A stretch of 64,000 bases of DNA from the NCBI GenBank assembly GCA_036556905.1, contig DATBIM010000050.1:8207-72206 (forward strand). The letters run 5' to 3'. A program made the position numbers and the translations under genes. Within the stretch, counting starts at the first letter, position 1; the number at the start of each line of letters is the position of its first letter. A model generated the notes under the pieces. That model searched no databases. It was not told the DNA's origin and worked only from the letters and a program-made list of their open reading frames with translations. Origin of the DNA: Candidatus Methylomirabilota bacterium (lineage in GTDB: Bacteria > Methylomirabilota > Methylomirabilia > Rokubacteriales > CSP1-6). Positions 3,737-63,984 of this stretch are shown here, piece after piece.

Positions 3737-4710
3737 GCGGGGTCGTCACGTGCGCCGCCTATGCCGGCGGTCGCCGCATCGCCGACGTCACGCTGGATGA
3801 CATCAGCGAAGTCTTGAAGCAGGACGACGAGCGATTCATCTGGATCGGGCTTCACGAGCCCGACGGACCGCTGCTCCGGAAGGTGCAGGCCGAATTCGGG
3901 CTGCACGACCTCGCCATCGAGGACGCGCTTCGAGCGCACCAGCGGCCCAAGCTCGAGCTCTATGACGGTTCCCTGTTCGTGGTGTTGCGCACGGTCCGGA
4001 TGGAGCCGGGCCGGCAGCTCGAGACCGGCGAGACGCACATCTTCGTGGGATCCCGCTACATCATCTCCGTTCGCCACGGGTCGTCTCTCTCGTATTCCGC
4101 CGTCCGCACCCGTTGCGAAGCCAATCCGGGGTTGCTGGCCCTGGGGCCCGGCTTCGTGCTCTATGCCCTGATGGACTTCATCGTCGACCAGTACTTCCCG
4201 GTCGTCGAGACACTGGAAGATCAGCTCGAGAGTCTGGAACAGGAGATCTTCGAGGAGCGCTTCGATCGGACCACCACGACGCGGATCTACCGCTTGAAGC
4301 GTGAGCTGCTCGAGCTCAAGCACGCCGCCTCGCCCCTGGTCGACATCGGCAACCGGCTGATGCGCGTCGACCTGGCCTCGATCCACGAGGCCACCCGGCC
4401 CTACTTCCGCGACGTCTATGACCACGTGGTGCGCATCAACGAGATGCTCGACACGCTGCGCGAGCTGCTGACCACGGCGCTGGAGGCCAACCTTTCGCTG
4501 ATCTCGGTCTCCCAGGCTGATGTGGTCAAACGACTCACGAGCTGGGGCGCCATCATCGCCGTCCCCACCCTGATCGCCAGCATCTACGGCATGAACTTTC
4601 ACGTCATGCCCGAGCTGCACTGGTGGTTCGGCTATCCGTTCGCCCTGACCCTCATGCTGAGTATCTGCGGGTTTCTCTACTACCGTTTTAAGCGCGCCGG
4701 CTGGCTCTGA
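3733..4710 (+). CDS. corA: magnesium/cobalt transporter CorA
   Basis: Cytoplasmic N-domain, two C-terminal TM helices and the diagnostic YGMNF (GMN) motif. ATGA overlap with the permease stop. Confidence 0.9.
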   Translation: MSGVVTCAAYAGGRRIADVTLDDISEVLKQDDERFIWIGLHEPDGPLLRKVQAEFGLHDLAIEDALRAHQRPKLELYDGSLFVVLRTVRMEPGRQLETGETHIFVGSRYIISVRHGSSLSYSAVRTRCEANPGLLALGPGFVLYALMDFIVDQYFPVVETLEDQLESLEQEIFEERFDRTTTTRIYRLKRELLELKHAASPLVDIGNRLMRVDLASIHEATRPYFRDVYDHVVRINEMLDTLRELLTTALEANLSLISVSQADVVKRLTSWGAIIAVPTLIASIYGMNFHVMPELHWWFGYPFALTLMLSICGFLYYRFKRAGWL

Positions 4711-4749: not shown

Positions 4750-5115
4750 TTAGAGATTGTCGTCGATCACGGCGGCCAGGCAGTCCAGAGTGCCCAGCGA
4801 GTAGACGTAGGTCCGCCAGCCGATCGCGATCCCGTCGGGCGGCTCACCCGCTGGCGGTGTCGGGTAGATGGTGACACTCACGTTGGGTCCGCTCCCGCCA
4901 CAGCCGCCGGCGCAGGCCTCGCGCACACGGACCCGATCGCTCAGGCCCCGCGCCCGTATCAGCTCATCGAGGTGCTGTCGGATCACTCGGGCATCCATCG
5001 GCACGGCGCGGAGTCCCGACTTCACGGGTAGCCTGACGAGCCCGGTTTCCAGGGGGCACACGTTGATGACGAGCCGTCGCGATCGGCCGCCGCCCTGCCG
5101 TGACCGCCGGGTCAT
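4750..5115 (-). CDS. hypothetical Cys-motif protein (possible thioredoxin-like/[2Fe-2S] ferredoxin-like)
   Basis: 121 aa with four Cys (C-x40-CAGGC-x37-C). 4-nt overlap with the upstream BadF-type ATPase gene. Family assignment is uncertain. Confidence 0.4.
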   Translation of the reverse strand: MTRRSRQGGGRSRRLVINVCPLETGLVRLPVKSGLRAVPMDARVIRQHLDELIRARGLSDRVRVREACAGGCGGSGPNVSVTIYPTPPAGEPPDGIAIGWRTYVYSLGTLDCLAAVIDDNL

Positions 5116-6014
5116 CTCCGCGGCTCCTTACTCGCCCGATGTTCTCTCGTCGGACGGGTGGGTTCGTGTGCCGCGAGCCGTCCGGCCAGCCCGGCCGCGG
5201 CCGCCACCGGCTCGGCGCCCGGCGACTGCCAGCGAGCGGACAGCCCGACGAGCCTGACCGCCCGCTTGAGCCCGGCCCGGAACCATGCATCGGCGCACAC
5301 GCTGCCCGCCCAGCTCACCGACACAGGCTGGCGCAAGCGCAGCCGCTTTGCCACGTCGGCCGCCTGCGCGGCCAGGTGCGCTTGCCCGGCCCGGACGATG
5401 GCGCGAGCACGCGCGTCGCCCCGCCGAGCGCGTCGGATCACGGCGGGTGCCAGCGCAGCGACGCGCACGACGGCATCCGGACCCGTCACCAGGCGGCGCG
5501 CTGGACGGAAGTCCTCGCCGCGCGTTGTGACGCGCAGCCACTGCTGACCCAGCCAGAAGGCCGAGCCCTCGTCACCCAGCAGAGGTCCGAGTCCACCGGC
5601 TCGCGCCCAGCGGCCACGAGAGTCCCGGCCGATCACGATCGATCCGGTGCCGCTCAAGATCAGCACACCCGGGCGCCCTCCGAGCGCGCCCAGATGCGCC
5701 GCTTGCGCGTCGGAGAGGACGGAGACACGCCGGGCCAGGTGGCCGAGCCGGTCGGCGAGCGCGCGCCGCTCACCGGCGGTCCACACGCCACGCGCCGCCA
5801 CGACCAGGGCTCCCACGGTGCGCGCCGTCCAGCCGCGCCGTCGCCAGAACGCACGGAAGAGCGGGCCGACTTCCCGGATCGGCGTTGCCCGGACTGTGAA
5901 GCGCGCCACTGGTCTGTCGCCTTGCAGCGCCTGAGCGCGCAGCCACGTCGCGCCGAGGTCGGCGCCGACGGCGATCGCGGGGACGCGCTTCTTGCCCTGT
6001 CCAAGCGGGAACAT
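5112..6014 (-). CDS. BadF/BadG/BcrA/BcrD-family ATPase, sugar-kinase type (predicted N-acetylglucosamine/N-acetylmuramic acid kinase, MurK-like)
   Basis: N-terminal IAVGADLGATWLRA (ASKHA phosphate-1), LILSGTGSIVIG and LGDEGSAFWLG motifs. It lacks the Cys pair of HgdC-type dehydratase activators. Confidence 0.7.
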   Translation of the reverse strand: MFPLGQGKKRVPAIAVGADLGATWLRAQALQGDRPVARFTVRATPIREVGPLFRAFWRRRGWTARTVGALVVAARGVWTAGERRALADRLGHLARRVSVLSDAQAAHLGALGGRPGVLILSGTGSIVIGRDSRGRWARAGGLGPLLGDEGSAFWLGQQWLRVTTRGEDFRPARRLVTGPDAVVRVAALAPAVIRRARRGDARARAIVRAGQAHLAAQAADVAKRLRLRQPVSVSWAGSVCADAWFRAGLKRAVRLVGLSARWQSPGAEPVAAAAGLAGRLAAHEPTRPTREHRASKEPRR

Positions 6015-6153
6015 GAACGTGCCTTCCTGTCCGTATTGTCGGTCACCCGCGGGTTGGGGACGGCCGGGAAATCGAGCGCTTAGCCAGGTAGCGGCGTGGC
6101 ACGCCCAATGCTCCCATAGTCAAGCCGAAGGGATCGAACAAAGGGGAAAGAAA

Positions 6154-6774
6154 ATGGGCAGGGCATTGGCCACCTGGTTGTTGATCGCTACCGCCGGCGC
6201 GCAGGGCATGACGCCCCGCGACGTCGTGCAGTCTGCGGTGGCCCGCGTGGTCCAGACGATCGAGGCCGCGGCGAGCCGCCCCGAGCCCGTGCGGGCGGGA
6301 CGTCCTCAGGCGCCGGGGTCGCGGGCGGAGATCAGGCGCATTGCCGCTGAACTGTTCGACTTCGGCGAGGTCGGGCGGCGAGCCCTGGGCCGGCACTGGG
6401 CGGGCCGCAGCCCGGAGGAGCAAACGGAGTTCATCGCGCTGTTCACCGATCTCCTGGAGCGGGCCTACGTCGGCAAAATCGAGGCCTACTCGGGTGAGCA
6501 GATCGTCTATACGAACGAGATCGTCGACGGCGATTACGCGGTCGTGCGCTCCCGGGTCAACACCAGGCGGGGGGCCGAGGTCGCCCTCGACTACCGGCTG
6601 CATCGGACCGAGGGTGGGTGGAAAGTCTACGATGTTCTCATCGATGGTGTCAGCTTCGTCTCCACGTACCGGAGCGAGTTCAATCGGATCATTCAGCTTC
6701 ACTCCTGGAACGAGCTGATGGATCGGTTGCGCCAGAAGCAGATCCCCGCTCGCACGGTGACCGACCGCAGCTGA
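6154..6774 (+). CDS. mlaC: phospholipid-binding periplasmic protein MlaC (Tgt2/toluene-tolerance family)
   Basis: Signal peptide MGRALATWLLIATAGAQG. Conserved MlaC blocks (IAAELFDFGEVGRRALGRHW, EFIALFTDLLERAYVGKIEAY, GWKVYDVLIDGVSFVSTYRSEF). RBS AAAGGGGAAAG sits before the ATG. Confidence 0.75.
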   Translation: MGRALATWLLIATAGAQGMTPRDVVQSAVARVVQTIEAAASRPEPVRAGRPQAPGSRAEIRRIAAELFDFGEVGRRALGRHWAGRSPEEQTEFIALFTDLLERAYVGKIEAYSGEQIVYTNEIVDGDYAVVRSRVNTRRGAEVALDYRLHRTEGGWKVYDVLIDGVSFVSTYRSEFNRIIQLHSWNELMDRLRQKQIPARTVTDRS

Positions 6775-6802
6775 CGCTGGGTCCTCCGCAGTATGATGGG
6801 GC

Positions 6803-8296
6803 GTGCCCGCGGCCGCTCCCGGCCTCGCCTGGTCCGACTACGTGGTCCTCGCCCTCTGCCTCGCCCTGCTGCTCGTCATCGGCGCCGGCTTCAGCCGGCA
6901 GCGCGACACTGTCGACTTCTTCCTGGCCCGACGGCGCGTACCCTGGTGGGCGGTCTGCCTGAGCTTTCTGGCCACCGAGATCAGTGCCGTCACTATCATC
7001 TCGGTCCCGGCCACGGCCTATAGCGAGAACTGGGAATACCTGCAATTCTTCGTGGGGTCGAGCCTGGCCAAGTTCGCCGTGGCCTGGCTGTTCATCCCCG
7101 CCTTCTACCGGTACCAGGTCGTCACCATCTACGAGTTCCTGCTCCACCGATTCGGCCAGGCCAGCCAGGTGACGGCCGCGCTCTTCTTCTTCGTCACCCG
7201 GCTCCTCGGCTCCGGTGTCCGCTTGATGGCTGCGGCGCTGGCCGTCTCGATCCTGCTCGGCTGGCCGCTGCCCCCCACCATCGCCATCTTCGTTGCGATC
7301 TCGATCCTCTACATCGCCGCCGGCGGGGTGAAGGCGATCGTCTGGACCAACGTCTTCCAGGCGCTGGTGTTCCTGCTGGCGGGCGCGGCGACCCTGACGT
7401 GGGCGGTGGCGCAGGTAGCGGGCGGCCTGCCGGCTATCGTGGAGCTTGCCGGTCCCGCCGGCCGTCTCGACATCATCAACTGGGGGCCGGCCCCGGGTGC
7501 CTCCGACTTCTGGCGCCGGGTGCTCTCGGAACCCAATATCGTGTGGGTGGCGATCCTCAACGGCCTGGTAGGCTCGATGGCCGCGTTCGGCACCGACCAC
7601 GACCTCATGCAGCGATTGCTCACCGTCGAGACACGGCGCGAGAGCCAGATTACCCTGTCCCTCACCCCGCTCGGCACGCTCCTGACGCTCATCATCTACC
7701 TGGGGCTGGGCGCCGCCCTGTACGCCTTCTACGCTCAGCACCCGGAACTGCCGGTCTCCCGGCCCGACGAGATTCTGCCTCACTTCGTGCAGCAGACGAT
7801 GCCGTCGATGCTGCGTGGCCTCATGCTGAGCGCGATCGTGCTGGCGTCGATCGACTCGCCGCTCGGCTCCCTGTCCGCCTCTTTCGTGACCGACATCTAC
7901 CGTCCTCTCCTCGCCCCTCGACGGTCGGAACGGCACTATCTGCTCGTCTCACGGGTTGCCGTCGTCGTATTCGGTCTTGTCCTCGGGGGTATTGCCCACG
8001 CGTTTTCTGCCTTCAGCCAGATTCTCTGGCTGGCCTTCAAGATCGCGGGCGTGACGTTCGGGTCCCTGCTGGGGGTGTTCCTGCTGGGACTTGCCACCAA
8101 CCGTGCGGTGCGGGACTGGGCGAACGTCACAGCGATGCTGGTCATGGCCGCGGTGAACCTGACGCTGCTCGTGCTGTCTGAGACCGGCATCCTCGTCTTC
8201 GCCTGGTCGTGGCTCGTAATCATCGGGACGGCCGGCACCATCCTCCTCGCGGTCGTCACAACTCACGTCTCCCATTTGATCAATCGCCGACGGTGA
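6803..8296 (+). CDS. sodium:solute symporter (SSS family)
   Basis: 13-14 TM segments. N-terminal SDYVVLALCLALLLVIGAGFSRQRDTVDFFLARRRVPWW is typical of the SSS family. The last six codons and the TGA stop lie inside the first unit of the downstream tandem repeat. Confidence 0.85.
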   Translation: MPAAAPGLAWSDYVVLALCLALLLVIGAGFSRQRDTVDFFLARRRVPWWAVCLSFLATEISAVTIISVPATAYSENWEYLQFFVGSSLAKFAVAWLFIPAFYRYQVVTIYEFLLHRFGQASQVTAALFFFVTRLLGSGVRLMAAALAVSILLGWPLPPTIAIFVAISILYIAAGGVKAIVWTNVFQALVFLLAGAATLTWAVAQVAGGLPAIVELAGPAGRLDIINWGPAPGASDFWRRVLSEPNIVWVAILNGLVGSMAAFGTDHDLMQRLLTVETRRESQITLSLTPLGTLLTLIIYLGLGAALYAFYAQHPELPVSRPDEILPHFVQQTMPSMLRGLMLSAIVLASIDSPLGSLSASFVTDIYRPLLAPRRSERHYLLVSRVAVVVFGLVLGGIAHAFSAFSQILWLAFKIAGVTFGSLLGVFLLGLATNRAVRDWANVTAMLVMAAVNLTLLVLSETGILVFAWSWLVIIGTAGTILLAVVTTHVSHLINRRR

Positions 8297-8525
8297 TTCC
8301 GTGGGGGCATGGGCGTGCCGGAAGGCCGGGTGCCCATGCCCTGTTCAACAGATCAATCGCCGCCGGTGATTCCGGCGGGGCGCGGGCGTGGCGTGAGCCC
8401 GGGGGCCCGCGCCCTGTTCAACAGATCAATCGCCGCCGGTGATTCCGGCGGGGCGCGGGCGTGGCGTGAGCCCGGGGCCTGCGCCCTGTTCAACAGATCA
8501 ATCGCCGCCGGTGATTCCGGCGGGG
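8271..8525. repeat. tandem palindromic repeat array, 72-73 bp period, about 3.5 units
   Basis: Unit is ccctgttcaaca + gatcaatcgCCGCCGGtgattCCGGCGGgg + CGCGGGCgtggcgtgagcccggggGCCCGCG. Unit starts are 8339, 8412 and 8484, with a diverged first unit from about 8271. Each unit has two GC-rich hairpins. The first unit carries CATGGGC...GCCCATG in place of CGCGGGC...GCCCGCG, a compensatory change. Confidence 0.85.
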
Positions 8526-8529
8526 CCGC

Positions 8530-8574
8530 AGTGCGAGCCGAGACGCGTCACGCGGCGAGGCGAGCGGCGAAATG
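8530..8574. repeat. dispersed 45-nt hairpin motif, copy A (AGTGCGAGCCGAG-[palindrome]-GCGAGGCGAGCGG-CGAAATG)
   Basis: Immediately follows the tandem array. The same motif recurs at 15936-15980 with identical 13-nt flanks and a different but still palindromic 12-nt core (ACGCGTCACGCG here). Confidence 0.7.
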
Positions 8575-8607
8575 ACCGAAATGGCGTCAGCCCGGGTGCT
8601 GGTCGAC

Positions 8608-10128
8608 TCAGCAATTGCCCATACGAGCGATCACTGCGTCGAGCTGGCAACGCCGGAAGCCGTAGGCGGTGATTCCGAGCACCCCCGGCTTGAGGAGTGC
8701 AGCGTCATAGGGGTCGCGTAGCAGCACCACGGCGAGGGCGCGGGCCCGGGCCTGCAGGACATCGAGCAACGTTCGGTTCGAGGCGTACAGGCGAGCGTCG
8801 TACAGGAAGAGGATGGTGGCGTCCGCGGTGGCGGCCGCTTCCACCGCGGCCTCGATCTCCGAGGGCGACGGTTCAATTCCGACCAGCGTGGCGTCGGGCA
8901 CGATGCCGACGGTGGCAAAGGCCTGCGCCAGATATCCCTTTTCGTCGGTCAGCTCTGGCTCGATGGTAATGCGGGCGGCCAGATCGGACAGGCGCGGAAA
9001 TACCACGGCGACGCGTCCGTTCAGTCGTCGCGCGAAGCCAGTTGGAGCAGGTGCTACGAGAGTCACCGCACGCGTGGCCATCGCCATCGCGAGTGCTGGG
9101 CCGTCCGGTTCGGGGCGTGGCGAGCCGCCCTGGAAGCGTCGGGACCGGGCCTGGCGGAGCTGGCGGACCCGCTCGGCAGCGGTCACGAGCTCGTCCCGGG
9201 GCAGCGCTCCCGATCGATAGGCATCGGTCAAGGCCCGGGCCGCGGCACGCTGAGCGCCCTCGGTGTGACAGACGAGCAGCACGTCGTGGCCGGCCGCGGC
9301 CGCGCGCACGGTTGCCTCGGCGATGGGGCAAGTCTCGGCGATGGCCCCCATCTCCAGGTCGTCCGAGACCACCACGCCCGGGAAACCGACCTCTCCGCGC
9401 AGGTAGTCGGTCACGATCCTCCTGGAGAAGGTCGCCGGAACGCCGGACGAATCGAGGTTGGGGTACACGGGATGAGAGGTCATGACGCAGGCGACGTCGG
9501 CGGCGATCGCCTCCAGAAAAGGTACGAGGTGAACCGCACGCATCTCGTCCCAAGTGGAGTCGATGCGGGGCAGCCGCAGGTGAGCGTCGAGGGGTGAGTG
9601 TCCCTTCCCCGGAAAGTGCTTGGCGCAGGCGGCGAGCCCACCCTTGGCCATGCCTCGGATGCGCGCCGTCCCGTAGCGCGCCACACGCGTTGCGTCCTTG
9701 CCGTACGAGCGGATGCCGATGTTCGGGCTGTAGCGCTCTGTCAGCACGTCGAGCACGGGGCCCAGGTTGAGGTCGATGCCGAGCCGTCGCAGTTCGCGGC
9801 CTTCGCACAGGCCCTGCCGGTAGGCGAACGCCTCCTCCCCGGCAGTACCGACGGCGAGGTTGTCGGGGAAGATCGTCACACCCCGGCCGAGCATGATGAC
9901 CCGACCGCCTTCGTGATCGGTCGCCACGAGCAGTCGGCGCTCGAGGGCGCCCTCCAAATCGCTGATCAGGCGAATGAGCTGAGTCGGGCTTTCGAAGTTC
10001 CGGCGGTAGAGGATGAGACCGGCCGCGTGGGTGTCGCGAAAGAGGGCGACGTCGCCCTGGCCCAGCGTCGGGCCGGGCAGCCCGATCATGAGCCGCTCGC
10101 CTACGAGGTCGGCGAAGTCGACCACCAC
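8608..10128 (-). CDS. nagZ: beta-N-acetylhexosaminidase (glycoside hydrolase family 3, NagZ-like) with C-terminal extension
   Basis: GH3 N-domain motifs (KHFPGKGHSPLDAHL, VVVSDDLEMGAI). 506 aa, so longer than the roughly 340 aa of E. coli NagZ; the extra length is a C-terminal domain. Confidence 0.85.
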   Translation of the reverse strand: MVVDFADLVGERLMIGLPGPTLGQGDVALFRDTHAAGLILYRRNFESPTQLIRLISDLEGALERRLLVATDHEGGRVIMLGRGVTIFPDNLAVGTAGEEAFAYRQGLCEGRELRRLGIDLNLGPVLDVLTERYSPNIGIRSYGKDATRVARYGTARIRGMAKGGLAACAKHFPGKGHSPLDAHLRLPRIDSTWDEMRAVHLVPFLEAIAADVACVMTSHPVYPNLDSSGVPATFSRRIVTDYLRGEVGFPGVVVSDDLEMGAIAETCPIAEATVRAAAAGHDVLLVCHTEGAQRAAARALTDAYRSGALPRDELVTAAERVRQLRQARSRRFQGGSPRPEPDGPALAMAMATRAVTLVAPAPTGFARRLNGRVAVVFPRLSDLAARITIEPELTDEKGYLAQAFATVGIVPDATLVGIEPSPSEIEAAVEAAATADATILFLYDARLYASNRTLLDVLQARARALAVVLLRDPYDAALLKPGVLGITAYGFRRCQLDAVIARMGNC

Positions 10129-10422
10129 GAGATTTTATCCTTCCCGGCGCCAAACTTCGGTGCACTGGCGGCAGCAGTTGTCGATCAGATGACACATTGT
10201 CTGGCCCAGCCAGCCTCATCCACCCTGCGCAAGTGCCCACCGTTTCTGCCGTCCTGGACGTCCCGTGGACCTGGCATATCTGGTGCATCTGGCCATCACC
10301 ATGATCCAAAACATTGAGCTCAGGCGCTGGCTCATCCTCGGACTGATCGCCATCCTCATGCTGGCCGAGGTGCTTCTGGAAGCCACCGTCGCGCCGGTGT
10401 AGCTCACGCCAAGAGAGAGGAC

Positions 10423-10761
10423 ATGTCGGACGACCGGTGGGGCCTCGGGAAACTTACGGCGATGGGGCTGGCGCTCGTCATGATCGGGGCGGTCATCATC
10501 GGTTTGGTGGTGGCGAACTGGAGCGGTCCGGTCCCGATGGTGATGCTGCCGGCTTCAGTTCCCGAGACGATGCAGGCCCCGAGCAACTTGCAGTCACGGA
10601 GTGCGGTGCCGGTGACGGCCCGCGAGCCCGTCGCCGCGCCCCCGGCGATCGATGAGGCCTGCAACGAGTACGCGGCGAAGGAGATCGGTCCGTTGGATGA
10701 GTCGAAGAAGGTTTCCTACCGGGCCGCCTACGCCATCTGCGTGCGCGCCCGAGGGTATTAG
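10423..10761 (+). CDS. hypothetical membrane-anchored protein
   Basis: 112 aa with one N-terminal TM helix. A purine-rich sequence (GAGAGAGGA) precedes the ATG. No family recognised. Confidence 0.4.
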   Translation: MSDDRWGLGKLTAMGLALVMIGAVIIGLVVANWSGPVPMVMLPASVPETMQAPSNLQSRSAVPVTAREPVAAPPAIDEACNEYAAKEIGPLDESKKVSYRAAYAICVRARGY

Positions 10762-10768
10762 CGGCCCC

Positions 10769-11107
10769 GTGTCAGCGCGAACCTTCCTCACCGGGCTTTC
10801 CCTGGTCATGGCCGTCGTGTGGGTCCTTCCGAGCTGGGCCGTGGATGACCGCAAGGTCAAGGCGGCAACGGGACAGGTCGAGTCAGGGGCCAAGAAGATC
10901 GGCCAGGGGAAGATCGGTGAGGGTGTCGAGCAGACGGCCAAGGGGATCGGTAACACCGTCGTCGAGGGGGCCAAGTTCAGCGGTGACAAGCTGAAGGAGG
11001 CGGGGAAGGCGGCTGAGCCCAAGGCCAAGAGCACCTGGGGCCACGTCAAGGAGGGCGCCACGTCCTTCGGTCAGAGCGTCAAGGCGTTCTTCTCAGACCT
11101 CTTCTGA
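10769..11107 (+). CDS. hypothetical secreted Lys/Gly-rich protein (CsbD-like repeats?)
   Basis: Signal-peptide-like N-terminus from GTG 10769, then repetitive G-x-K/A-K-G segments (KKIGQGKIGEGVEQTAKGIGNTVVEGAKFSGDKLKEAGKAA). Confidence 0.4.
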   Translation: MSARTFLTGLSLVMAVVWVLPSWAVDDRKVKAATGQVESGAKKIGQGKIGEGVEQTAKGIGNTVVEGAKFSGDKLKEAGKAAEPKAKSTWGHVKEGATSFGQSVKAFFSDLF

Positions 11108-11143
11108 TGTAACCGATTCGCGCCGACCTCACCCGGCGTCGCC

Positions 11144-12334
11144 TCACCGATACATGAGGAAGGCGATCCGTTGTTTCTTCCAGCTCGTGAGTCCGCGTCG
11201 CCAACCGCGCTCCAGTGCGTCGAGGGCCGCGCCGTGCTCCAGGCCGCGTCGAATAACGTCCGTGCCCAGGAGGATGTCGATCGGCAGCCGCCGCGCCTCG
11301 AACTCGTAAGGCGGCCGCCGCCAGGCGAAGCGACGTGGCGCCTGCCGTCGGGCCACCGCCAGCAGGCCCAGACCTGTCAGGAACGGCTTGAACCGCCGGC
11401 GATCCTCCACGTGAATCTGCACACCTCCGCAGAGGCGGTTGGCCCACTTGTGAAACGTCGGCCTGAACCGGAGTGGCCGGAACCTGACGCCGGGCAACCC
11501 GAGGCGATCCAGCGCCGTCGCGTAACGGCGCGGGTCGAGGAAGGGCGCGCCGACCCACTCGAACGGTCGCGTCGTCCCCCGGCCCTCGGAGAGGTTCGTT
11601 CCCTCGATCAGGCATCCCCCGGGATAGACGCGCGCGGTGTCGGGCGTGGGCATGTTGGGCGAAGGGGTGACCCACGGCAGATCCGTGTCCTCCCAGAGCA
11701 TGCCGCGGCGCCAGCCCTGCATGGGCACTACCGTGAGATCGCAGCCGAGTCCATGCCGGCGATTGAGATACAGGGCCAGCTCTCCGATGGTCATGGCGTG
11801 CCGGGCGGGCAGCGGAAAGAGCCCGACGAACGATGCGAAGGCCGGATCGGGAAGGTTGCCCTCGACGATCTCACCGCCGAGGGGGTTGGGACGATCGAGC
11901 ACGATCACCGGCACACCCGACCGGGCGCACGCCCCCATCGCCAGCGCCATCGTCCACACGAAGGTGTAATAACGGGAGCCGACGTCCTGAAGATCGACGA
12001 TCAGGGCATCGAGCTGGCGCAGCATGGCGGGAGCCGGCGCCCGGCGTCGGCCGTAGAGGCTCAGCACCGGCAACCGGGTGATGGGCTCACGGGCGTGCGC
12101 GATCGGGGCATGGTCCTGGGCGGCCCCCCAGAGGCCGTGCTCGGGGGCGAAGAGCCGGACGAGCCGCACGCCGGGCGCTTCCCGGAGAAGGACGGCGGCG
12201 TGTTCGAGACGCGCATTCACCGAGGCCTGGTGGGCGAGAAGCGCGAGCCGCCGGCCACGGAGCAGGGCCCCGCGACCGGCCAGCAACACCTCTAGACCCG
12301 AGCGCACCCGGGGCATGCCGCGATAGTAGCCCAC
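11144..12334 (-). CDS. DUF1343-family protein (predicted exo-beta-N-acetylmuramidase, NamZ-like)
   Basis: 396 aa. DUF1343 architecture with conserved blocks LVRLFAPEHGL, ALIVDLQDVGSRYYTF and VPVIVLDRPNPLGG. Lies between nagZ and murQ. Confidence 0.75.
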   Translation of the reverse strand: MGYYRGMPRVRSGLEVLLAGRGALLRGRRLALLAHQASVNARLEHAAVLLREAPGVRLVRLFAPEHGLWGAAQDHAPIAHAREPITRLPVLSLYGRRRAPAPAMLRQLDALIVDLQDVGSRYYTFVWTMALAMGACARSGVPVIVLDRPNPLGGEIVEGNLPDPAFASFVGLFPLPARHAMTIGELALYLNRRHGLGCDLTVVPMQGWRRGMLWEDTDLPWVTPSPNMPTPDTARVYPGGCLIEGTNLSEGRGTTRPFEWVGAPFLDPRRYATALDRLGLPGVRFRPLRFRPTFHKWANRLCGGVQIHVEDRRRFKPFLTGLGLLAVARRQAPRRFAWRRPPYEFEARRLPIDILLGTDVIRRGLEHGAALDALERGWRRGLTSWKKQRIAFLMYR

Positions 12335-12388
12335 CCAGCACGGCCGGTGGCCGCCCGGCGGCGGAATCGGGGTAGGATGCGGCCCAGT

Positions 12389-13336
12389 ATGCGCCGCGGG
12401 TCCTGGGCCGGGCTGTCCACCGAGCGCGTCAACCCCGCCAGCCGCGCATTGGACCGCATGACGTCCCTCGACATCGCCCGGCTGATGAATCGCGAGGATC
12501 AGGCGGCCGTTCGCCGCGTTCGGCGCGCGCTGCCCGCGATCGGCCGAGCCGTGGATCTCATCGTGACGGCACTATCCCGCCGGGGCCGTCTCTTCTTCAT
12601 CGGCGCCGGCACGAGCGGACGCCTCGGGGTGCTGGAGGCGGCGGAGTGCCCGCCGACGTTCGGGACGCCGCCGGCCCTGGTGCAGGCCATCATGGCCGGC
12701 GGGCGGGCTTCTGTGTTTCGCTCGCGCGAGGGAGCTGAAGACGACGCCAGGGCGGCGGCGCGGGCCGTCCGGGCCCGGGTGCGGCGAGGGGACGTCCTCG
12801 TCGGCGTCTCGGCCAGCGGCGTCACTCCCTTTGTGCGCGCGGGTCTCGGTCAGGCCAGGCGGCTCGGGGCCCGCACGGTGCTGGTCGTGTGCAACCCTCG
12901 ACCGACACGCCTGGGCGAGGTGATCATTGCGCTCGATCCGGGACCGGAGGTCCTCACCGGCTCTACCCGCCTCAAGGCCGGGACCGTGACGAAGCTCGTC
13001 CTCAACACGTTGACGACGGCCAGCATGGCCCGCCTGGGCCGGGTGTACGGCAACCTCATGATCGATCTCCAGCCCCGGTCGGCCAAACTTCGAGCCCGGG
13101 CATCACGGCTCGTCCAGCAGGTCGGGCGGGTGCCGGCGCCGGCCGCCGCTCGCGCCTTGCGGGCTGCCGGCGGGCATGTGCGGCTGGCGCTGGTCATCGC
13201 GCGTACCGGGCTGGCGACGGGCCCCGCGCGGCGCCTCCTGCGTGACGCCGGTGGTTCGCTCAGCGTCGCGCTGGAGCGCTACGGCGGCGCGCGCCTCCAA
13301 GCCCGCTCTCGCGCCCGGCGTCGGCCAGCGCGGTGA
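12389..13336 (+). CDS. murQ: N-acetylmuramic acid 6-phosphate etherase
   Basis: SIS domain. N-terminus LSTERVNPASRALDRMTSLDIARLMNREDQAAV aligns with E. coli MurQ. Contains GRLFFIGAGTSGRLGVLEAAECPPTFG and GSTRLKAGT motifs. ATG at 12389 chosen over upstream GTG. Confidence 0.85.
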   Translation: MRRGSWAGLSTERVNPASRALDRMTSLDIARLMNREDQAAVRRVRRALPAIGRAVDLIVTALSRRGRLFFIGAGTSGRLGVLEAAECPPTFGTPPALVQAIMAGGRASVFRSREGAEDDARAAARAVRARVRRGDVLVGVSASGVTPFVRAGLGQARRLGARTVLVVCNPRPTRLGEVIIALDPGPEVLTGSTRLKAGTVTKLVLNTLTTASMARLGRVYGNLMIDLQPRSAKLRARASRLVQQVGRVPAPAAARALRAAGGHVRLALVIARTGLATGPARRLLRDAGGSLSVALERYGGARLQARSRARRRPAR

Positions 13337-13361
13337 AGCGTGACGGATTCGACCCTGACGA

Positions 13362-15095
13362 TCAGGTGTGCGAGGGACCGGCGGTGTCCTCGACCTGGAC
13401 CGGCGTCTGGCCACACAGGAAGTCGAAGTCGCACCCCTGATGAGCCTGCAGGACGTGGTCGAGGAAGAGCTTGCCGTAGCCACGCGTGAAGTGCGGGGGG
13501 CGAGGCCGCCAGGCGGCGCGCCGGCGGGCGAGCTCATCATCGCCGACTCGCAGGGTGAGCCGGCGCCCGGGCACGTCGAGCTCGATCTGGTCGCCATCGC
13601 GGACCAGCGCCAGCGGCCCGCCAACCGCCGACTCGGGCGCCACGTGGAGCACCACTGTGCCGTAGGAGGTCCCGCTCATCCGGGCATCCGAAACGCGTAC
13701 CATGTCTCGCACCCCTTGCCGCAGGAGCCGGGCGGGGATGGGGGCCGCTCCCCACTCGGGCATGCCCGGCGCCCCCTTGGGACCGACATGCTTCAGCACG
13801 AGGACGGAGCGCTCGTCGATCGGCAGCGAAGGATCGTCGATCCGGCGGTGCAAGTCGGCATGGTCTTCGAAGACCACCGCCCGGCCGCGGTGGGTGAGCA
13901 GTTCGGGTGACGCTGCCGATTGCTTGAGCACGGCGCCGTCGGGGCACAGATTGCCGGTGAGCACGACCGTACCGCCCTCCGGGGCCAGGGGAACCGCGAG
14001 CGGCCGAATGACGTCGTCGTTGTAACTCTTCGCGTCGCGAACGTTGTCCTTCAGCCTGGACCCGTTCACCGTCAAGGCGTCGCCGTGGAGCAGCGGGAGA
14101 AGCTCCTTGAGGACCACGGGCAGCCCGCCGGCGTAGAAGAAGTCTTCCATGAGGTACTTGCCGGAGGGGCGCACGTTGACCAGCAGGGGAGTGCTTCGGG
14201 AAAGGGCGTCGAACCGGGCGAGAGGCAGGGCGAGGCCCAGGCGGCCGGCGATCGCCACCAGATGGATGATCGCGTTCGTCGACCCTCCGATCGCCATGTC
14301 GGCACGGATGGCATTGTCAAAGGCGTCCGCGGTCATGATCCGGGAGGGCCTGGGTCCGCCGGCCAGGGCCAGCTCGACGGCCCGCCGACCGCTGAGCTCG
14401 GCGAGGATGAGTCGCCGCGAGTCGGGGGCAGGAATCGCGGCGTTGCCTGGCAGCGTCATGCCGAGCGCCTCGGCCATGGCCGCCATGGTGGACGCCGTGC
14501 CCATGACCATGCAGTGGCCGGATGACCGGGACATACAGGACTCGGCCTCGCACAGCTCCTCGTCGGTGAGTCGCCCGGCCCGCCGCTCGGCCCACAGCCG
14601 CCAGGCGTCGGTGCCCGACCCTAGCTCCTCGGTGCGCCACCGGCCACGCAACATCGGGCCCCCGGTCACCATGATGGCGGGGATGTCGGCTGAAGCTGCG
14701 CCCATCAGCATGGCCGGCGTCGTCTTGTCGCAGCCCGACAGGAGCACCACCGCGTCCAGGGGGTAGGCCCGCAGGCACTCCTCCACGTCCATGGCCATCA
14801 GGTTCCGAAAGAGCATCGTGGTGGGCTTCATGAGGACCTCGCCCAGCGAGATGGTGGGAAACTCCAGCGGGAATCCGCCGGCGCTCCACACTCCACGCTT
14901 CACGGCCTCGGCCACCTGGCGGAGGTGGGCGTTGCAGTTGGTGAGCTCGGACCAGGAGTTGGCGATGCCGACGACCGGGCGGCCGTCGAACAGGAGGTCG
15001 CTGAATCCCTCGGTCTTGAGCCACGAGCGGTGTACGAACCCGTCGAGGTCGCGGCGGCCGAACCAGTTGCGGCTTCTGAGCGGCTGTGCTGTCAT
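13362..15095 (-). CDS. IlvD/EDD-family dehydratase (dihydroxy-acid / sugar-acid dehydratase)
   Basis: 577 aa. CDKTTPAMLMGAA and SGHCMVMGTASTMA Fe-S ligand motifs, GGPIALV-like C-terminal block. Confidence 0.85.
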   Translation of the reverse strand: MTAQPLRSRNWFGRRDLDGFVHRSWLKTEGFSDLLFDGRPVVGIANSWSELTNCNAHLRQVAEAVKRGVWSAGGFPLEFPTISLGEVLMKPTTMLFRNLMAMDVEECLRAYPLDAVVLLSGCDKTTPAMLMGAASADIPAIMVTGGPMLRGRWRTEELGSGTDAWRLWAERRAGRLTDEELCEAESCMSRSSGHCMVMGTASTMAAMAEALGMTLPGNAAIPAPDSRRLILAELSGRRAVELALAGGPRPSRIMTADAFDNAIRADMAIGGSTNAIIHLVAIAGRLGLALPLARFDALSRSTPLLVNVRPSGKYLMEDFFYAGGLPVVLKELLPLLHGDALTVNGSRLKDNVRDAKSYNDDVIRPLAVPLAPEGGTVVLTGNLCPDGAVLKQSAASPELLTHRGRAVVFEDHADLHRRIDDPSLPIDERSVLVLKHVGPKGAPGMPEWGAAPIPARLLRQGVRDMVRVSDARMSGTSYGTVVLHVAPESAVGGPLALVRDGDQIELDVPGRRLTLRVGDDELARRRAAWRPRPPHFTRGYGKLFLDHVLQAHQGCDFDFLCGQTPVQVEDTAGPSHT

Positions 15096-15139: not shown

Positions 15140-15937
15140 ATGCGCTTGGCCGGCAAGGTCGCGATCGTCACGGGAGGAGGCAGTGGCATCGGGCGGGGGA
15201 TCGCCATGGCGCTGGCCCGCGAGGGTGCTGACGTGGCCATTCCCGACATTCAGGTTCTGAACGCGGAGAAGGTCTCCGACGAGATCAAGGGGCTGGGCCG
15301 AAAGGCGATGGCCATGAAGGCCGACGTCACCAGCTCCGCCGACGTCAAGACCATGGTCGACCGGACGCGGGAGTCCCTGGGCAAGATCGATATTCTCGTC
15401 AATAACGCCGGTATGGCGGCGCCCCCGGGCATGCCGTTCACCAACAACACCGAGGACGATTGGGATCGCGCCTTCGCCGTCAACACCAAGTCGGTGTTCC
15501 TCACCTGCAAGGCCGTCGCGCCCTACTTCATCGAGCGCAAGGCCGGGCGGATCATCAACATCGCGTCGATCGCAGGGCCCCTGGCGGCCGTCACCATGCC
15601 GGCCTACAGCGTGGCCAAGCAGGGGGTGATCACGTTCACTCGCGTGGTGGCCAAGGAGCTGGCGGCCCACCGGATCACCGTGAACGCGATCTGCCCCGGC
15701 GTCTTGTGGACGGATTTCTGGCAGAAGCTCGCGGCCCACATCGCGCAGACGAACCCGGCCTTCGCTGGACTGACGCCGCGACAGGTGTTCGACAAGCGGG
15801 TCAGTGACATCGTGCCGATGAAGTGTGAGCAGGAGCCCGAGGACATCGGCGCCGCCGCGGTCTTCCTGGCTTCAGACGAAGCGCGCTACATCACCGGCCA
15901 GGCCCTCATGGTCGACGGCGGGTGTGTGATGTGGTAG
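15140..15937 (+). CDS. SDR-family oxidoreductase (3-oxoacyl-ACP reductase-like)
   Basis: TGGGSGIGRG cofactor motif, NNAG, catalytic YSVAK, PG motif. Confidence 0.85.
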   Translation: MRLAGKVAIVTGGGSGIGRGIAMALAREGADVAIPDIQVLNAEKVSDEIKGLGRKAMAMKADVTSSADVKTMVDRTRESLGKIDILVNNAGMAAPPGMPFTNNTEDDWDRAFAVNTKSVFLTCKAVAPYFIERKAGRIINIASIAGPLAAVTMPAYSVAKQGVITFTRVVAKELAAHRITVNAICPGVLWTDFWQKLAAHIAQTNPAFAGLTPRQVFDKRVSDIVPMKCEQEPEDIGAAAVFLASDEARYITGQALMVDGGCVMW

Positions 15938-16026
15938 TGCGAGCCGAGGCGCCTTGGGCGGCGAGGCGAGCGGTGAGATGGGGGTGGTAGTGCGAGCCGC
16001 AGGACCTCGCGGGGAGGCCAGCGCGT
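15936..16026. repeat. dispersed 45-nt hairpin motif, copies B1 (15936-15980) and B2 (about 15989-16026) in tandem
   Basis: B1 is agtgcgagccgagGCGCCTTGGGCGgcgaggcgagcggtgagatg and is 38/45 identical to copy A, with a compensated palindromic core. B2 repeats tggtagtgcgagccg 52 nt downstream. The motif starts at the SDR stop codon and ends 10 nt before the ACAD start. Confidence 0.7.
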
Positions 16027-16036
16027 AGGGGACACT

Positions 16037-38799: not shown

Positions 38800-39160
38800 G
38801 CTGAGAGCGCGCGTCACGCTGGTCAGCGCGGCGACGGCTGCCGTGCTGGCGGGATTGGCCTACGGGCTGGCCGGCCCCGCCGCTGGGCTCGGGGTCGCGG
38901 CCGCGGGGGCCCTGACTTTGGCGAACTTCTGGTGGCTCGTGCACAACGCCGGTGCCGTCGCCGACGTCGTCCCCGCCTCGCGCCGGCTCGTCTGGGCCGT
39001 CGCCTCCGGGGTGCGACTCCTGGCGCTGGTGGCGGTGCTGGCCCTGCTACTCGCCTCCGGGCTCGTGCACCCCGTGGCGTTCGTCGTCGGGCTGGTGATC
39101 GTGCCCGGCGCGGTGATCGTGCTGGGACTGCGGGCCGCCTGTCGCGCCGGAGCCGGATGA
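38792..39160 (+). CDS. atpI: ATP synthase protein I
   Basis: About 122 aa hydrophobic protein with four predicted TM segments (NFWWLVHNAG... region). Overlaps the atpZ stop. Position immediately upstream of atpB. Confidence 0.5.
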   Translation: MRELRARVTLVSAATAAVLAGLAYGLAGPAAGLGVAAAGALTLANFWWLVHNAGAVADVVPASRRLVWAVASGVRLLALVAVLALLLASGLVHPVAFVVGLVIVPGAVIVLGLRAACRAGAG

Positions 39161-39942
39161 TGGGAGCGATCGAGCACCCTCCGATCCTTCAGCTGCCAAC
39201 CATTCCCGACCATGTCACGTATACGTGGCTGGTGATGATCCTGCTCGCCGCGCTGGCCTTCCTGGGCTCCCGCCACGTCGCGCTGGTCCCGCGGGGCCTG
39301 CAGAATGTCCTGGAAGTCGTGCTCGAGCAAATCCTGGGAATGATCGACGACGTGATCGGGCCCGGTGGGCGCCAGTACCTGCCCCTGATCGCCACCCTCG
39401 GGCTCTTCATCCTGACCGGCAACCTCATCTCGCTCGTGCCCGGCCTGGCCGGGCCGACGGCCAACCTCAACACCACGGCGGCGTGTGCCATCATCGTGTT
39501 CGTCTCCTACCATTACATCGGTATCAAGAATCAGGGTCTGGTGGCCTACCTGAACCACTTCACCGGTCCCATGCCCTGGTCGCTGGGAATGGCTCCCATC
39601 AAGCTCTTGATGATTCCCATCGAGCTCATCAGCCACCTGGCCCGGCCCCTGTCGCTGTCGCTCCGGCTCTTCGGTAACATGACGGGCGGCCACATCCTCT
39701 TGGCGATCATCTTCTTCCTCATGGGTCTGGACGGGCTGCTGGGGTGGGCGCTCTCGGGGAGCGGGCTCGCTGTCGTGCTGGGCGGACTGGGTAGCGTCAT
39801 CATGGTCGTCTTCACCGTCGGCTTCCTGTTCCCGCTGAAGATCCTGGTCTCGTTCCTGCAGGCCTTCATCTTCGTCATGCTGACCATGCTGTACATCGCC
39901 GGCGCGACCGAACACGCCGAGCATCACGCGGAGCACCACTAG
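39157..39942 (+). CDS. atpB: F0F1 ATP synthase subunit a, with His-rich C-terminal tail
   Basis: Conserved [15 protein letters not shown] (essential Arg) and helix-5 region. ATGA overlap with atpI. C-terminus ends [11 protein letters not shown]. Confidence 0.9.
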
Positions 39943-39961
39943 CCACAAGGAGGGCCGGTTC

Positions 39962-40291
39962 GTGCGACGTTCACTGGTTGCCGTGGGCATGATAGTGTTC
40001 GCGTTCCCGAGCCTGGCGCTGGCCCAGACGCCCGCCGGAGGAGGGGGTGGTGGCTGGGTCGGACCGTTCGCCGTCCTGGCCGCCGGTCTCGGCATGGCGT
40101 TCGCCGCCGGCCTCTGCGGCCTCGGGCAGGGGCGGGCGATCGCGTCTGCGGTCGAGGCCATGGCCCGCCAGCCCGGCGCGGCGGCGCGGATTCAGACCGC
40201 GATGATCATCGGTCTGGCGCTGATCGAGTCGCTGGCGATCTACACGCTGGTCATCGCGATCATCTTGTTGTTCGTTCAGCCGGTCAAGTAG
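39962..40291 (+). CDS. atpE: F0F1 ATP synthase subunit c with signal-peptide-like N-terminal extension
   Basis: C-terminal 70 aa are a canonical c-subunit hairpin ([22 protein letters not shown], proton-binding E in IESLAIY). Preceded by [41 protein letters not shown] is 8 nt before the GTG. Confidence 0.85.
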
Positions 40292-40344
40292 ACAGGCTCG
40301 CGGTGGCGGGCGCGGACGCCGTGCCCGCCACCCACGCACTGCTC

Positions 40345-52926: not shown

Positions 52927-53664
52927 GTGATCGCCATCATCGATTACGGCCGCGGCAACCTGGGCTCGGTGGAAAAGGCCTTCCAGCGCGTCGGTGTGCC
53001 GGCGACGGTCACCCAGGATCCGCGCGTGGTCGAGGACGCCGAGGCGGTGGTGCTCCCTGGAGACGGGGCATTTCACGACGCGATGGCGAATCTGGATCAA
53101 CTGGGGTTGCGGGCGCCGCTGGTGCGCGCCCTGGACGGACGCCGGCCTTTCCTGGGAATCTGCCTGGGCTATCAGCTCCTGTTCTCGAGCAGTGAGGAGT
53201 TCGGCCAGGGCCGCGGGCTGGACGTCATCCCCGGTGTGGTGCGGCGCTTCCCGCCCGGCCGGAAGGTCCCGCACATGGGTTGGAATCGCGTCCACCACGG
53301 CGGCGGGCTCCGGCTGTTCGAGGGGATCCCCGACGGCGCGCACTTCTACTTCGTCCACTCTTACTATCCTGTTGTAGCGGGGGCCGAGAGCCCGGGTACG
53401 ACCGAGGGTGGCCTGTCTCCGGTGGCCGGGGCTCCGGACGCCCGGTCGACCGCTGGCCTGTCTCCGGTGGCCGGGGCTCCGGACGCCCGGTCGACGGGCT
53501 CGAGTGCTTCACTCCGGGTGGCATGGTGCGAATACGGCGTGCGGTTCGCGGCGGCCCTGGAGCGTGGGCGGATCTTCGCGACGCAGTTCCATCCCGAGAA
53601 GAGCCAGCGCTGGGGGTTGCGGCTCCTCGAGAACTTCGCCGCATTCGTGAAGAGCGGCGGATGA
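52927..53664 (+). CDS. hisH: imidazole glycerol phosphate synthase, glutamine amidotransferase subunit, with a roughly 35-aa insertion containing a tandem repeat
   Basis: IAIIDYGRGNLGSV, catalytic GICLGYQLL and FHPEKS motifs. 245 aa against the usual 200 or so. The extra residues lie between YFVHSYY and the C-terminal FHPEKS block. Confidence 0.85.
   Translation: MIAIIDYGRGNLGSVEKAFQRVGVPATVTQDPRVVEDAEAVVLPGDGAFHDAMANLDQLGLRAPLVRALDGRRPFLGICLGYQLLFSSSEEFGQGRGLDVIPGVVRRFPPGRKVPHMGWNRVHHGGGLRLFEGIPDGAHFYFVHSYYPVVAGAESPGTTEGGLSPVAGAPDARSTAGLSPVAGAPDARSTGSSASLRVAWCEYGVRFAAALERGRIFATQFHPEKSQRWGLRLLENFAAFVKSGG
53409..53495 (+). repeat. 45-bp in-frame tandem duplication inside hisH (two copies)
   Basis: tggcctgtctccggtggccggggctccggacgcccggtcgac occurs at 53409-53450 and again at 53454-53495, separated by cgc. 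It encodes GLSPVAGAPDARST twice in the hisH reading frame. Confidence 0.85.
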
Positions 53665-63786: not shown

Positions 63787-63858
63787 GCTGGCGTAGCTCA
63801 GGGGAAGAGCAACTGCCTTGTAAGCAGTGGGTCGGGGGTTCAAATCCTCCCGCCAGCG
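63787..63858 (+). tRNA. tRNA-Thr (anticodon TGT)
   Basis: Cloverleaf folded by hand. Acceptor gctggcg/cgccagc, D-stem gctc/gagc, anticodon stem actgc/gcagt with loop cTTGTaa, T-arm gggggTTCAAATcctcc, discriminator G. CCA is encoded at 63859-63861. Confidence 0.85.
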
Positions 63859-63901: not shown

Positions 63902-63984
63902 GGGGAGGTACCCAAGTGGCCAAAGGGGGCAGACTGTAAATCTGCTGGCGTACGCCTTCGGGGGTTCAAATCCTCCCCTCCCCA
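63902..63984 (+). tRNA. tRNA-Tyr (anticodon GTA)
   Basis: Acceptor ggggagg/cctcccc, 3-bp D-stem, anticodon stem gcaga/tctgc with loop cTGTAaa, long variable arm (ggcg-ta-cgcc), the same T-arm as tRNA-Thr, discriminator A. CCA is encoded at 63985-63987. Confidence 0.85.

Follow-up and report, generated by a model that had tools for sequence, protein, structure and literature searches.

A conserved palindromic spacer, tandemly repeated between convergent transporter and glycoside hydrolase genes in a Methylomirabilota bacterium

A 64,000-nucleotide stretch of DNA from Candidatus Methylomirabilota bacterium (GenBank assembly GCA_036556905.1, contig DATBIM010000050.1, positions 8,207–72,206 of the forward strand; referred to here as the window) carries a tandem array of a 73-nt unit between two convergent genes. 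One encodes a transporter of the sodium:solute symporter family (SSF), and the other encodes a NagZ-like beta-N-acetylhexosaminidase of glycoside hydrolase family 3 (GH3). Each full unit contains two palindromes, here termed hp1 and hp2. We put at about one in two the probability that hp2 is a 3′-end RNA hairpin common to the convergent SSF and GH3 transcripts and that the array derives from duplication of the conserved spacer in which it lies; we infer both the RNA-level function and the mechanism of duplication from sequence comparisons. The feature is a lineage-specific case of a familiar kind (structured intergenic minisatellite or 3′ hairpin) and not a new system.

Tandem Repeats Finder places the array at 8278..8526 (period 73, 3.4 copies, 91% matches, score 396), in agreement with an earlier reading made from the letters alone (the sequence-only reading), which had described a tandem array between convergent genes. 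A 30-nt motif of the unit occurs four times, compared with zero occurrences expected from shuffles. The array consists of a diverged first unit (U1), a canonical second unit (U2), a third (U3) and a partial fourth (U4), and ends in a copy of a different repeat, R53 (Table 1). U3 differs from U2 by a 1-nt bulge deletion and by a C-to-T change that produces a G-T pair in the hp2 outer stem (GCCTGCGCC), and hp1 of U1 (CCGACGG/CCGTGGG) has one compensated A-T pair and one G-G mismatch. The expectation of two perfect hairpins per unit is therefore correct for U2 and fails for U1 (imperfect hp1), U3 (G-T pair in hp2) and U4 (no hp2). Both outer arms of hp2 changed together, from CGCGGGC/GCCCGCG in U2 to CATGGGC/GCCCATG in U1, with complementarity kept in both, as the sequence-only reading had recognized. 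It was also right that this is not a CRISPR array, because the entire 73-nt period repeats and leaves no unique spacers.

Table 1. Positions of the array, its hairpins, the adjoining genes and other annotated features in the window
Feature	Position	Strand	Description
SSF (sodium:solute symporter family) gene	6803..8296	+	Pfam PF00474, E=1.4e-39
Unit 1 (U1)	8278-8350	+	diverged copy
U1 hp1	8287-8305	+	imperfect
U1 hp2	8305-8341	+	outer stem CATG-type, inner stem GCC/GGC, loop GGAA
Unit 2 (U2)	8351-8423	+	canonical copy
U2 hp1	8360-8378	+	perfect, CCGCCGG-tgatt-CCGGCGG
U2 hp2	8378-8414	+	outer stem GGGCGCGGGC/GCCCGCGCCC, inner stem GGC/GCC
U2 hp2 loop and bulge	8393-8396 (loop)		loop GTGA; 3′ bulge CGGGG
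Unit 3 (U3)	8424-8495	+	72 nt
Partial unit 4 (U4)	8496-8526	+	linker and hp1 only; equals first 31 nt of U2
R53 copy closing the array	8526..8574	+	a single 53-nt unit of this other, interspersed repeat
GH3 (glycoside hydrolase family 3; NagZ-like beta-N-acetylhexosaminidase) gene	8608..10128	-	Pfam PF00933, E=2.4e-66
tRNA gene	63787-63858	+	Rfam RF00005, 68.7 bits
tRNA gene	63902-63984	+	Rfam RF00005, 57.2 bits

For comparison we used the orthologous SSF/GH3 junction from 12 other contigs, grouped by gene identity. Clade A contains the window and its counterpart L003 together with L038, L039 and L040 (85–92% DNA identity within the clade); clade B contains L001 and L002 (about 95% mutual identity) and clade C contains L041–44 (99.8–100%). 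DNA identity between these clades is about 79–86%, and L004 and L005 are outgroups. The unit is found at the SSF/GH3 junction in all three clades, with a copy number of 1, 1 inverted, 2 or 3.4. A single unit lies in the spacer of L041–44 and in that of L040, where it abuts the GH3 stop, and in such single-copy relatives it takes up nearly all of the spacer between the two stop codons; L038, an independent metagenome-assembled genome (MAG) from NCBI, has two tandem units, and L001 has one unit in the opposite orientation. The L002 spacer is 15 nt long and has no unit, whereas L039 keeps GGTGATTCCGGCG and has unrelated GC hairpins at the expected place of hp2. The outgroup spacers (9 and 52 nt) are without the unit, and scans of contig collections, described below, gave no genuine match, so that the suggestion of a lineage-specific element is supported. 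U1 recurs in L003, an independent metagenome contig; its core differs from those of other copies at 8–12 of 56 positions, apart from this same-population counterpart (2 differences). The core of U2 differs at 3 of 56 positions from the first unit of L038 and at 5 from clade C.

We aligned 10 copies from 6 lineages, with 56 columns defined as the core, and found 42 of the 75 alignment columns to be invariant. In this alignment hp2 is a GC-rich element of ~37 nt, in which a 10-bp stem and an inner stem are separated by a bulge and capped by a C(GNNA)G loop, flanked by the motifs GGTGATTCCGG and CCCTGTTCAA. Core identity between lineages is 84–95%, compared with 63–82% at third codon positions of the SSF gene (binomial P from 2 × 10−6 to 0.015); for example, the values are 91% and 63% for window U2 and L041 (P = 2 × 10−6), 93% and 66% for L038 U1 and L001 (P = 2.5 × 10−6), and 95% and 69% for L041 and L001 (P = 2 × 10−6). 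These comparisons support purifying selection on the core. 

Selection on structure, which the sequence-only reading had argued from the paired changes in U1, is supported as well. Across the 10 copies the outer helix of hp2 is 98% paired and the inner helix 100%, and three pairs have changed on both sides: 32–60 (AU in 6 copies, GC in 4), 33–59 (CG in 7, UA in 3) and 41–48 (GC in 8, CG in 2), with no unpaired intermediate at these pairs among the 10 copies. Pairing is 92.5%, compared with at most 50% when partners are slid, and RNAalifold recovers hp2 unaided. The CACG/CGTG form of clades B and C bridges the CGCG and CATG forms in single-pair steps, and the CATG form probably arose twice, because the two units that have it, in the window (U1) and in L038 (U2), are separated by 11 differences in 56 positions. 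Altogether, we count about 3–5 independent compensatory events, a suggestive but thin covariation signal. The tetraloop is closed by a C-G pair, and its first G and last A are invariant, whereas the middle two bases take six forms (TG, GA, AA, AC, TA and CT); this GNNA pattern points to the + strand of the unit as the folding strand.

Every unit folds better than its own shuffles (z about −3; for U1, a DNA fold of −22.2 kcal/mol with z of −3.4). As 45-nt RNA, the hp2 copies fold at −35.5 (U2), −33.8 and −31.9 kcal/mol, compared with a window mean of −14.4 (standard deviation 4.5), and the U2 energy is the lowest of any 45-nt segment of the window's + strand; other parts of the window reach −33.7 and −33.5 kcal/mol. 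We do not regard the hp1 hairpin as conserved, since its pairing is only 78%, three of its six pairs are broken in several lineages, and it is perfect only in window units 2–4. An alternative pairing, AATCGCC-NNN-GGTGATT, is possible in its place.

The positions of the gene ends bear on the origin of the array. In the window, the SSF stop TGA (8294–8296) lies within the TGATT loop of U1 and the translation ends in ...THVSHLINRRR*, the last six codons (LINRRR) being unit sequence; the sequence-only reading had correctly placed these codons in the first unit and the stop in its hairpin loop. In clade A and L001 the SSF open reading frame (ORF) continues into the spacer up to the TGA of GGTGATT, and a tail TH..Q.I.RR* is common to their proteins. 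In clade C, the SSF gene stops at a TAG ~45 nt upstream of GGTGATT, so that in this clade the unit's left part does not code for protein, and the GH3 stop (TCA on the unit strand) lies inside the right end of the unit, CCCTGTTCAATAAT. The single unit of L040 spans the last SSF codons to the base preceding the GH3 stop. The unit is therefore native spacer together with the two gene ends. This reverses the direction of the sequence-only reading, in which the gene end was made from the repeat unit.

The array is best read as a minisatellite produced by tandem duplication of the whole short SSF/GH3 spacer, so that each unit would carry SSF tail codons and a TGA; one frame of every unit does contain a stop codon. 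The duplicated piece would have the last SSF codons and TGA at its left and the former GH3 stop region (TTCAAyA) at its right, with a putative duplication junction of ...GTTCAACA|GATCAATCG..., and extra copies would arise when the short TCAA-containing ends slip or recombine unequally. Among the redundant copies, one could stay canonical and another drift yet keep hp2 paired. Canonical and drifted units can be told apart in the window (U2 and U3 versus U1) and in L038 (U1 versus U2), and the drifted units still retain hp2.

In its single-copy form the spacer is old and conserved, and it belongs to this one gene junction in a Methylomirabilota subgroup. When the clade C spacer is reverse-complemented, that of L001 aligns to it over ~117 nt (score 138, compared with 23 for the direct orientation) and L002 keeps only the distal part of this inverted spacer. 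Rearrangement of the region has therefore included an inversion or inverted duplication in place, a deletion and tandem duplication, events that are expected of a palindrome-rich site. The same alignment led us to drop the idea of a recent insertion in L001, with L002 as the ancestral state; L002 more likely represents a deletion, if the direction of change is read correctly. Change can also be seen within clade C: L041 (4072–4107) and L042 have 4 differences, including 2 indels, in the 36 nt immediately upstream of the core (GGTGATT), whereas their GH3 and SSF genes are 99.8–99.9% identical and their hairpin cores identical. One of them switches the base at the CCG(A/C)CG position by which U1 and U2 of the window are also distinguished.

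At the convergent 3′ ends, hp2 would pause or stop RNA polymerase, probably assisted by Rho or NusG as no U-tract follows it; it would also block 3′–5′ exonucleases and limit read-through into the opposing gene. Because its stem is palindromic, the hairpin could form on both transcripts and still work when inverted, as in L001. A role at 3′ ends is suggested by the location between two stops, the high stability, the ability to form in both orientations and the occurrence of other hairpins at this place in L039. Exonuclease protection or insulation and termination are given equal weight, because the terminator role of the nearest analogue, the mycobacterial TRIT motif considered below, has been questioned by Term-seq.

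Several points count against this proposal. Neither strand has a U-tract after the hairpins, and there are 0 terminator-like sites in 7800–9000, so that any termination would be non-canonical or factor-assisted and the earlier suggestion of 'stacked terminators' is plausible only loosely. In the best-studied high-GC case, hairpins without a U-tract are reported to terminate poorly (PMC3993855), and TRIT motifs seldom coincide with mapped 3′ ends (bioRxiv 10.1101/2022.06.01.494293). Conservation to the extent of 42 of 75 invariant columns exceeds the need of a generic terminator and hints at a specific partner; the core is dispensable, given that the close relatives L002 and L039 are without it; and patchy presence, flipped orientation and identity above that of the flanks are hallmarks of mobile elements too. 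Finally, the wobble cells on the + strand (one G-U and two A-C) favour neither strand. As for the wider setting, terminator-like sites consisting of a hairpin plus a U-tract are not enriched in positions 1–60000 of the window (18 found, 18.5 expected from shuffled sequence). Non-canonical 3′ structures are therefore plausible here, and the lineage may rarely use canonical intrinsic terminators.

How widely the unit is distributed bears on the first alternative, that of a small non-autonomous mobile palindromic element (resembling a miniature inverted-repeat transposable element or a repetitive extragenic palindrome (REP)), low-copy or site-specific, which would insert at the 3′ ends of genes, supply a stop codon, flip and amplify. 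This we regard as unlikely, although it is the strongest of the alternatives. It would account for the presence/absence difference between the 95%-identical L001 and L002, the opposite orientation in L001, the range of copy number from 1 to 3.4 and a core that is more alike between clades than are the flanking genes; moreover, the same genome has a second repeat, R53, which is genuinely interspersed and likewise begins at a stop codon. Against it, all 10 copies sit at one gene junction and none was found elsewhere in 174 kb. Blastn searches of 174.5 kb (the 64-kb window and about 110 kb of relatives) found no 73-nt unit outside the SSF/GH3 junction, and neither did a covariance model built from 8 copies and run over 156.6 kb of window and relatives, for which the next-best scores (≤18 bits) appear to be chance matches. 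In a genome contig collection the pattern GTGATTCCG-N30-45-CCCTGTTCAAC gave 31 matches in diverse taxa, all of them chance, with local alignment scores of 11–27 compared with 47–50 for true copies; a stricter pattern gave 1 match in a metagenome contig collection, in a coding region and therefore chance, and a pattern scan of a viral contig collection gave 0 matches. The exact patterns used fit only 5 of the 10 known copies, so these scans argue against a high-copy family and not against rare copies. The source genome itself is, by the same scans, absent from those collections. The REP-like element family proposed in the sequence-only reading was not borne out, as every copy found sits at the one junction.

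Other observations also count against a mobile element. The unit shows neither clear terminal inverted repeats nor target-site duplications, and L001 is colinear with the inverted whole clade C spacer (~117 nt), which fits local inversion or inverted duplication and not fresh insertion. No transposase or REP-associated tyrosine transposase (RAYT) was identified among the 14 window ORFs run against Pfam, and none was seen adjoining the array. An 88-aa ORF extending through the array has no match in a database of 5.8 billion proteins; therefore, no similar long arrays have been gene-called elsewhere, and no ORF called across such arrays is present in that set.

A second alternative is that hp2 belongs to a specific structured RNA (a 3′ untranslated region (UTR) cis-regulatory element or a 3′-UTR-derived small RNA) tied to cell-wall sugar recycling, with conserved single-stranded motifs serving as recognition sites. 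The unpaired parts GGUGAUUCC, bulge CGGG and CCCUGUUCAA are strongly conserved, and the covariation, the GNNA loop and the conserved neighbourhood of genes for NamZ, GH3, a SIS-domain protein, a BadF/BcrA-family ATPase and the SSF transporter fit such an RNA. We nevertheless think it somewhat less probable than a mobile element. No Rfam family matches, even at E≤10: the matches in the window are 2 tRNAs only, and the best in 8150–8700, to mir-8993, scores 15.6 bits where the gathering score is 99. The unit is absent from the close relatives L002 and L039 and from the outgroups L004 and L005, which share the gene order; it works in either orientation relative to the genes, and tandem duplication is unusual among regulatory RNAs. 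On a more novel reading, the 59–73-nt core would be a new structured element of narrow distribution within Methylomirabilota. It could be a mobile palindrome, site-specific or low in copy number, that alters the 3′ ends of genes by donating stop codons, flipping and amplifying, or else a new 3′-UTR RNA motif that has its own protein partner and is associated with the cluster for recycling cell-wall sugars. We hold this reading to be unlikely.

Less probable again is a function at the level of DNA, in which a cruciform-prone palindrome serves as a recombination or protein-binding site and its arms are kept by palindrome-templated repair (template switching), not by selection. The inversion, inverted duplication, deletion and tandem duplication across lineages would be in keeping with this, as would the recurrence of compensatory transitions at the CGCG/CACG/CATG site in unrelated units (window U1 and L038 U2, with 11 of 56 positions different). 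Template switching, however, would not preserve the asymmetric bulge, nor would it keep strand-specific G..A loop ends while the middle of the loop varies, and conservation of the core extends to non-palindromic flanks. It is very improbable that the copy number is an artefact, inflated or collapsed during assembly: independent short-read contigs do break inside the array (L003 (1696–1769) ends at the last base of unit 1 and, in JGI sample 3300043331, contig P0002 ends 54 nt past the SSF stop and P0123 149 nt past the GH3 stop), but unit 1 is reproduced in L003, a two-unit array was assembled in the independent MAG L038, and U2 and U3 differ at 2 positions and hence are not trivial duplicates. 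The exact copy number of 3.4 is the assembled value and is provisional. The breaking contigs suggest multi-unit arrays in other populations.

Among known systems, REPs and the bacterial interspersed mosaic elements (BIMEs) of enterobacteria and pseudomonads are extragenic GC-rich imperfect palindromes, often located at gene 3′ ends or between convergent genes; they can form tandem clusters of variable copy number and they stabilize upstream mRNA. REPs number tens to hundreds of dispersed copies; they have a GTAG/GTGG head, successive copies within a BIME lie in alternating orientation, and RAYT transposases are associated with them. The array resembles them in its GC-rich palindromes at the 3′ ends of convergent genes, its tandem arrangement and its variable copy number, but it occupies one locus, runs head-to-tail, has two unlike hairpins per unit and has gene stops inside the unit. 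Although palindromes are present, no GTAG/GTGG head was found next to hp1 or hp2.

Mycobacterial interspersed repetitive units (MIRUs), a kind of variable number tandem repeat (VNTR), are found at numerous loci between co-directional genes, whose translation is coupled by an ORF inside the unit. Like MIRU-VNTRs, the array consists of intergenic head-to-tail units of 40–100 nt (period 73) in a high-GC genome, with a variable copy number (1, 2 and 3.4) and unit ends that overlap codons of the neighbouring genes. MIRUs are described as inserting at start codons (PMC12548453). In contrast to MIRUs, the unit is strongly palindromic, its period of 73 is not a multiple of 3, and it is not interspersed between co-directional genes with a coupling ORF: the one known locus lies between convergent genes and has a stop in its units. 

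We consider the nearest analogue of hp2 to be the Tuberculosis Rho-independent terminator (TRIT) motif (Gardner et al. 2011), which is restricted to Mycobacterium, with 147 dispersed copies per genome that are not tandem (PMC3152330). Both are conserved in sequence and structure, palindromic and hence bidirectional, located at or overlapping the stop codon (TRIT around −8) and found in a high-GC host poor in canonical terminators (PMC3152330). The array differs in being tandem at a single junction, and the likeness is drawn from the published description of TRIT. Bidirectional intrinsic terminators between convergent genes share the position, GC-rich stem and stable tetraloop, but the array has no U-tract or A-tract, unusually strong sequence conservation and tandem duplication. 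An integron attC site, which has paired R″ (RYYYAAC) and R′ (GTTRRRY) core sites in each element of a cassette array, was rejected, as GTTCAAC occurs once per unit in one orientation only, without a cassette or integrase context. A literature search on repeats in Rokubacteria gave nothing relevant.

The closest homologues of both flanking proteins are from soil metagenomes and from MAGs named Methylomirabilota or Candidatus Rokubacteria; a look-up found no record of the window SSF protein itself. Around the array, window positions 5112–15095 form a conserved neighbourhood for the recycling of cell-wall amino sugars, with genes for a BadF/BcrA-family ATPase, MlaC, the SSF transporter, GH3 (NagZ-like), the exo-muramidase NamZ and a SIS-domain (MurQ/GKRP-like) protein. 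The gene order of this cluster is retained in L004, L005 and L038.

The R53 copy at the end of the array is 84–87% identical to 15936–15980 (84% for 8530–8574), which bears out the earlier remark that the array ends in a different 45-nt motif that recurs elsewhere. The R53 unit is 53 nt long (GTGGTAGTGCGAGCCGAGGCGC..GGCGGCGAGGCGAGCGGTGAGATGG) and, unlike the 73-nt unit, is interspersed. Two R53 units (15931–16036) start on the TGGTAG stop of an SDR gene and fill the spacer between it and an acyl-CoA dehydrogenase gene, and 2.3 units are present in L038 at 4102–4205. R53 is absent from the SSF/GH3 spacers of L001, L038, L040 and L041, and from the SDR/acyl-CoA dehydrogenase spacer (10 nt) of L004 and L005. 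It has no significant fold and was rejected as a palindromic REP. Elsewhere in the window, stable hairpins occur at 40294–40338 (−33.5 kcal/mol), just beyond an ORF at 38860..40161 (−), and at 24496–24540 (AAACTGGCGGCCGCG...CGGCCGCCAGAAA, −29.4 kcal/mol). A perfect 45-nt tandem duplication at 53409–53495 (1.9 copies, 100% identical) adds 15 residues in frame to a glutamine amidotransferase (HisH-like) ORF at 52927..53664; either a recent duplication or the assembly itself could account for it.

Methylomirabilota and Rokubacteria are uncultivated, and their transcript ends and small repeats are almost uncharted. The SSF/GH3 junction offers a natural series for one conserved 3′ hairpin, which is absent, single, inverted, doubled or present in 3.4 copies. 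The array is a tractable VNTR marker for strain typing in soil metagenomes, and the locus is a warning that short-read assemblies of Rokubacteria fragment here; otherwise, the array is a local, dispensable feature. For the biology of these bacteria, hp2 may show one way in which convergent transcripts are delimited in a high-GC lineage that has no U-tract terminators.

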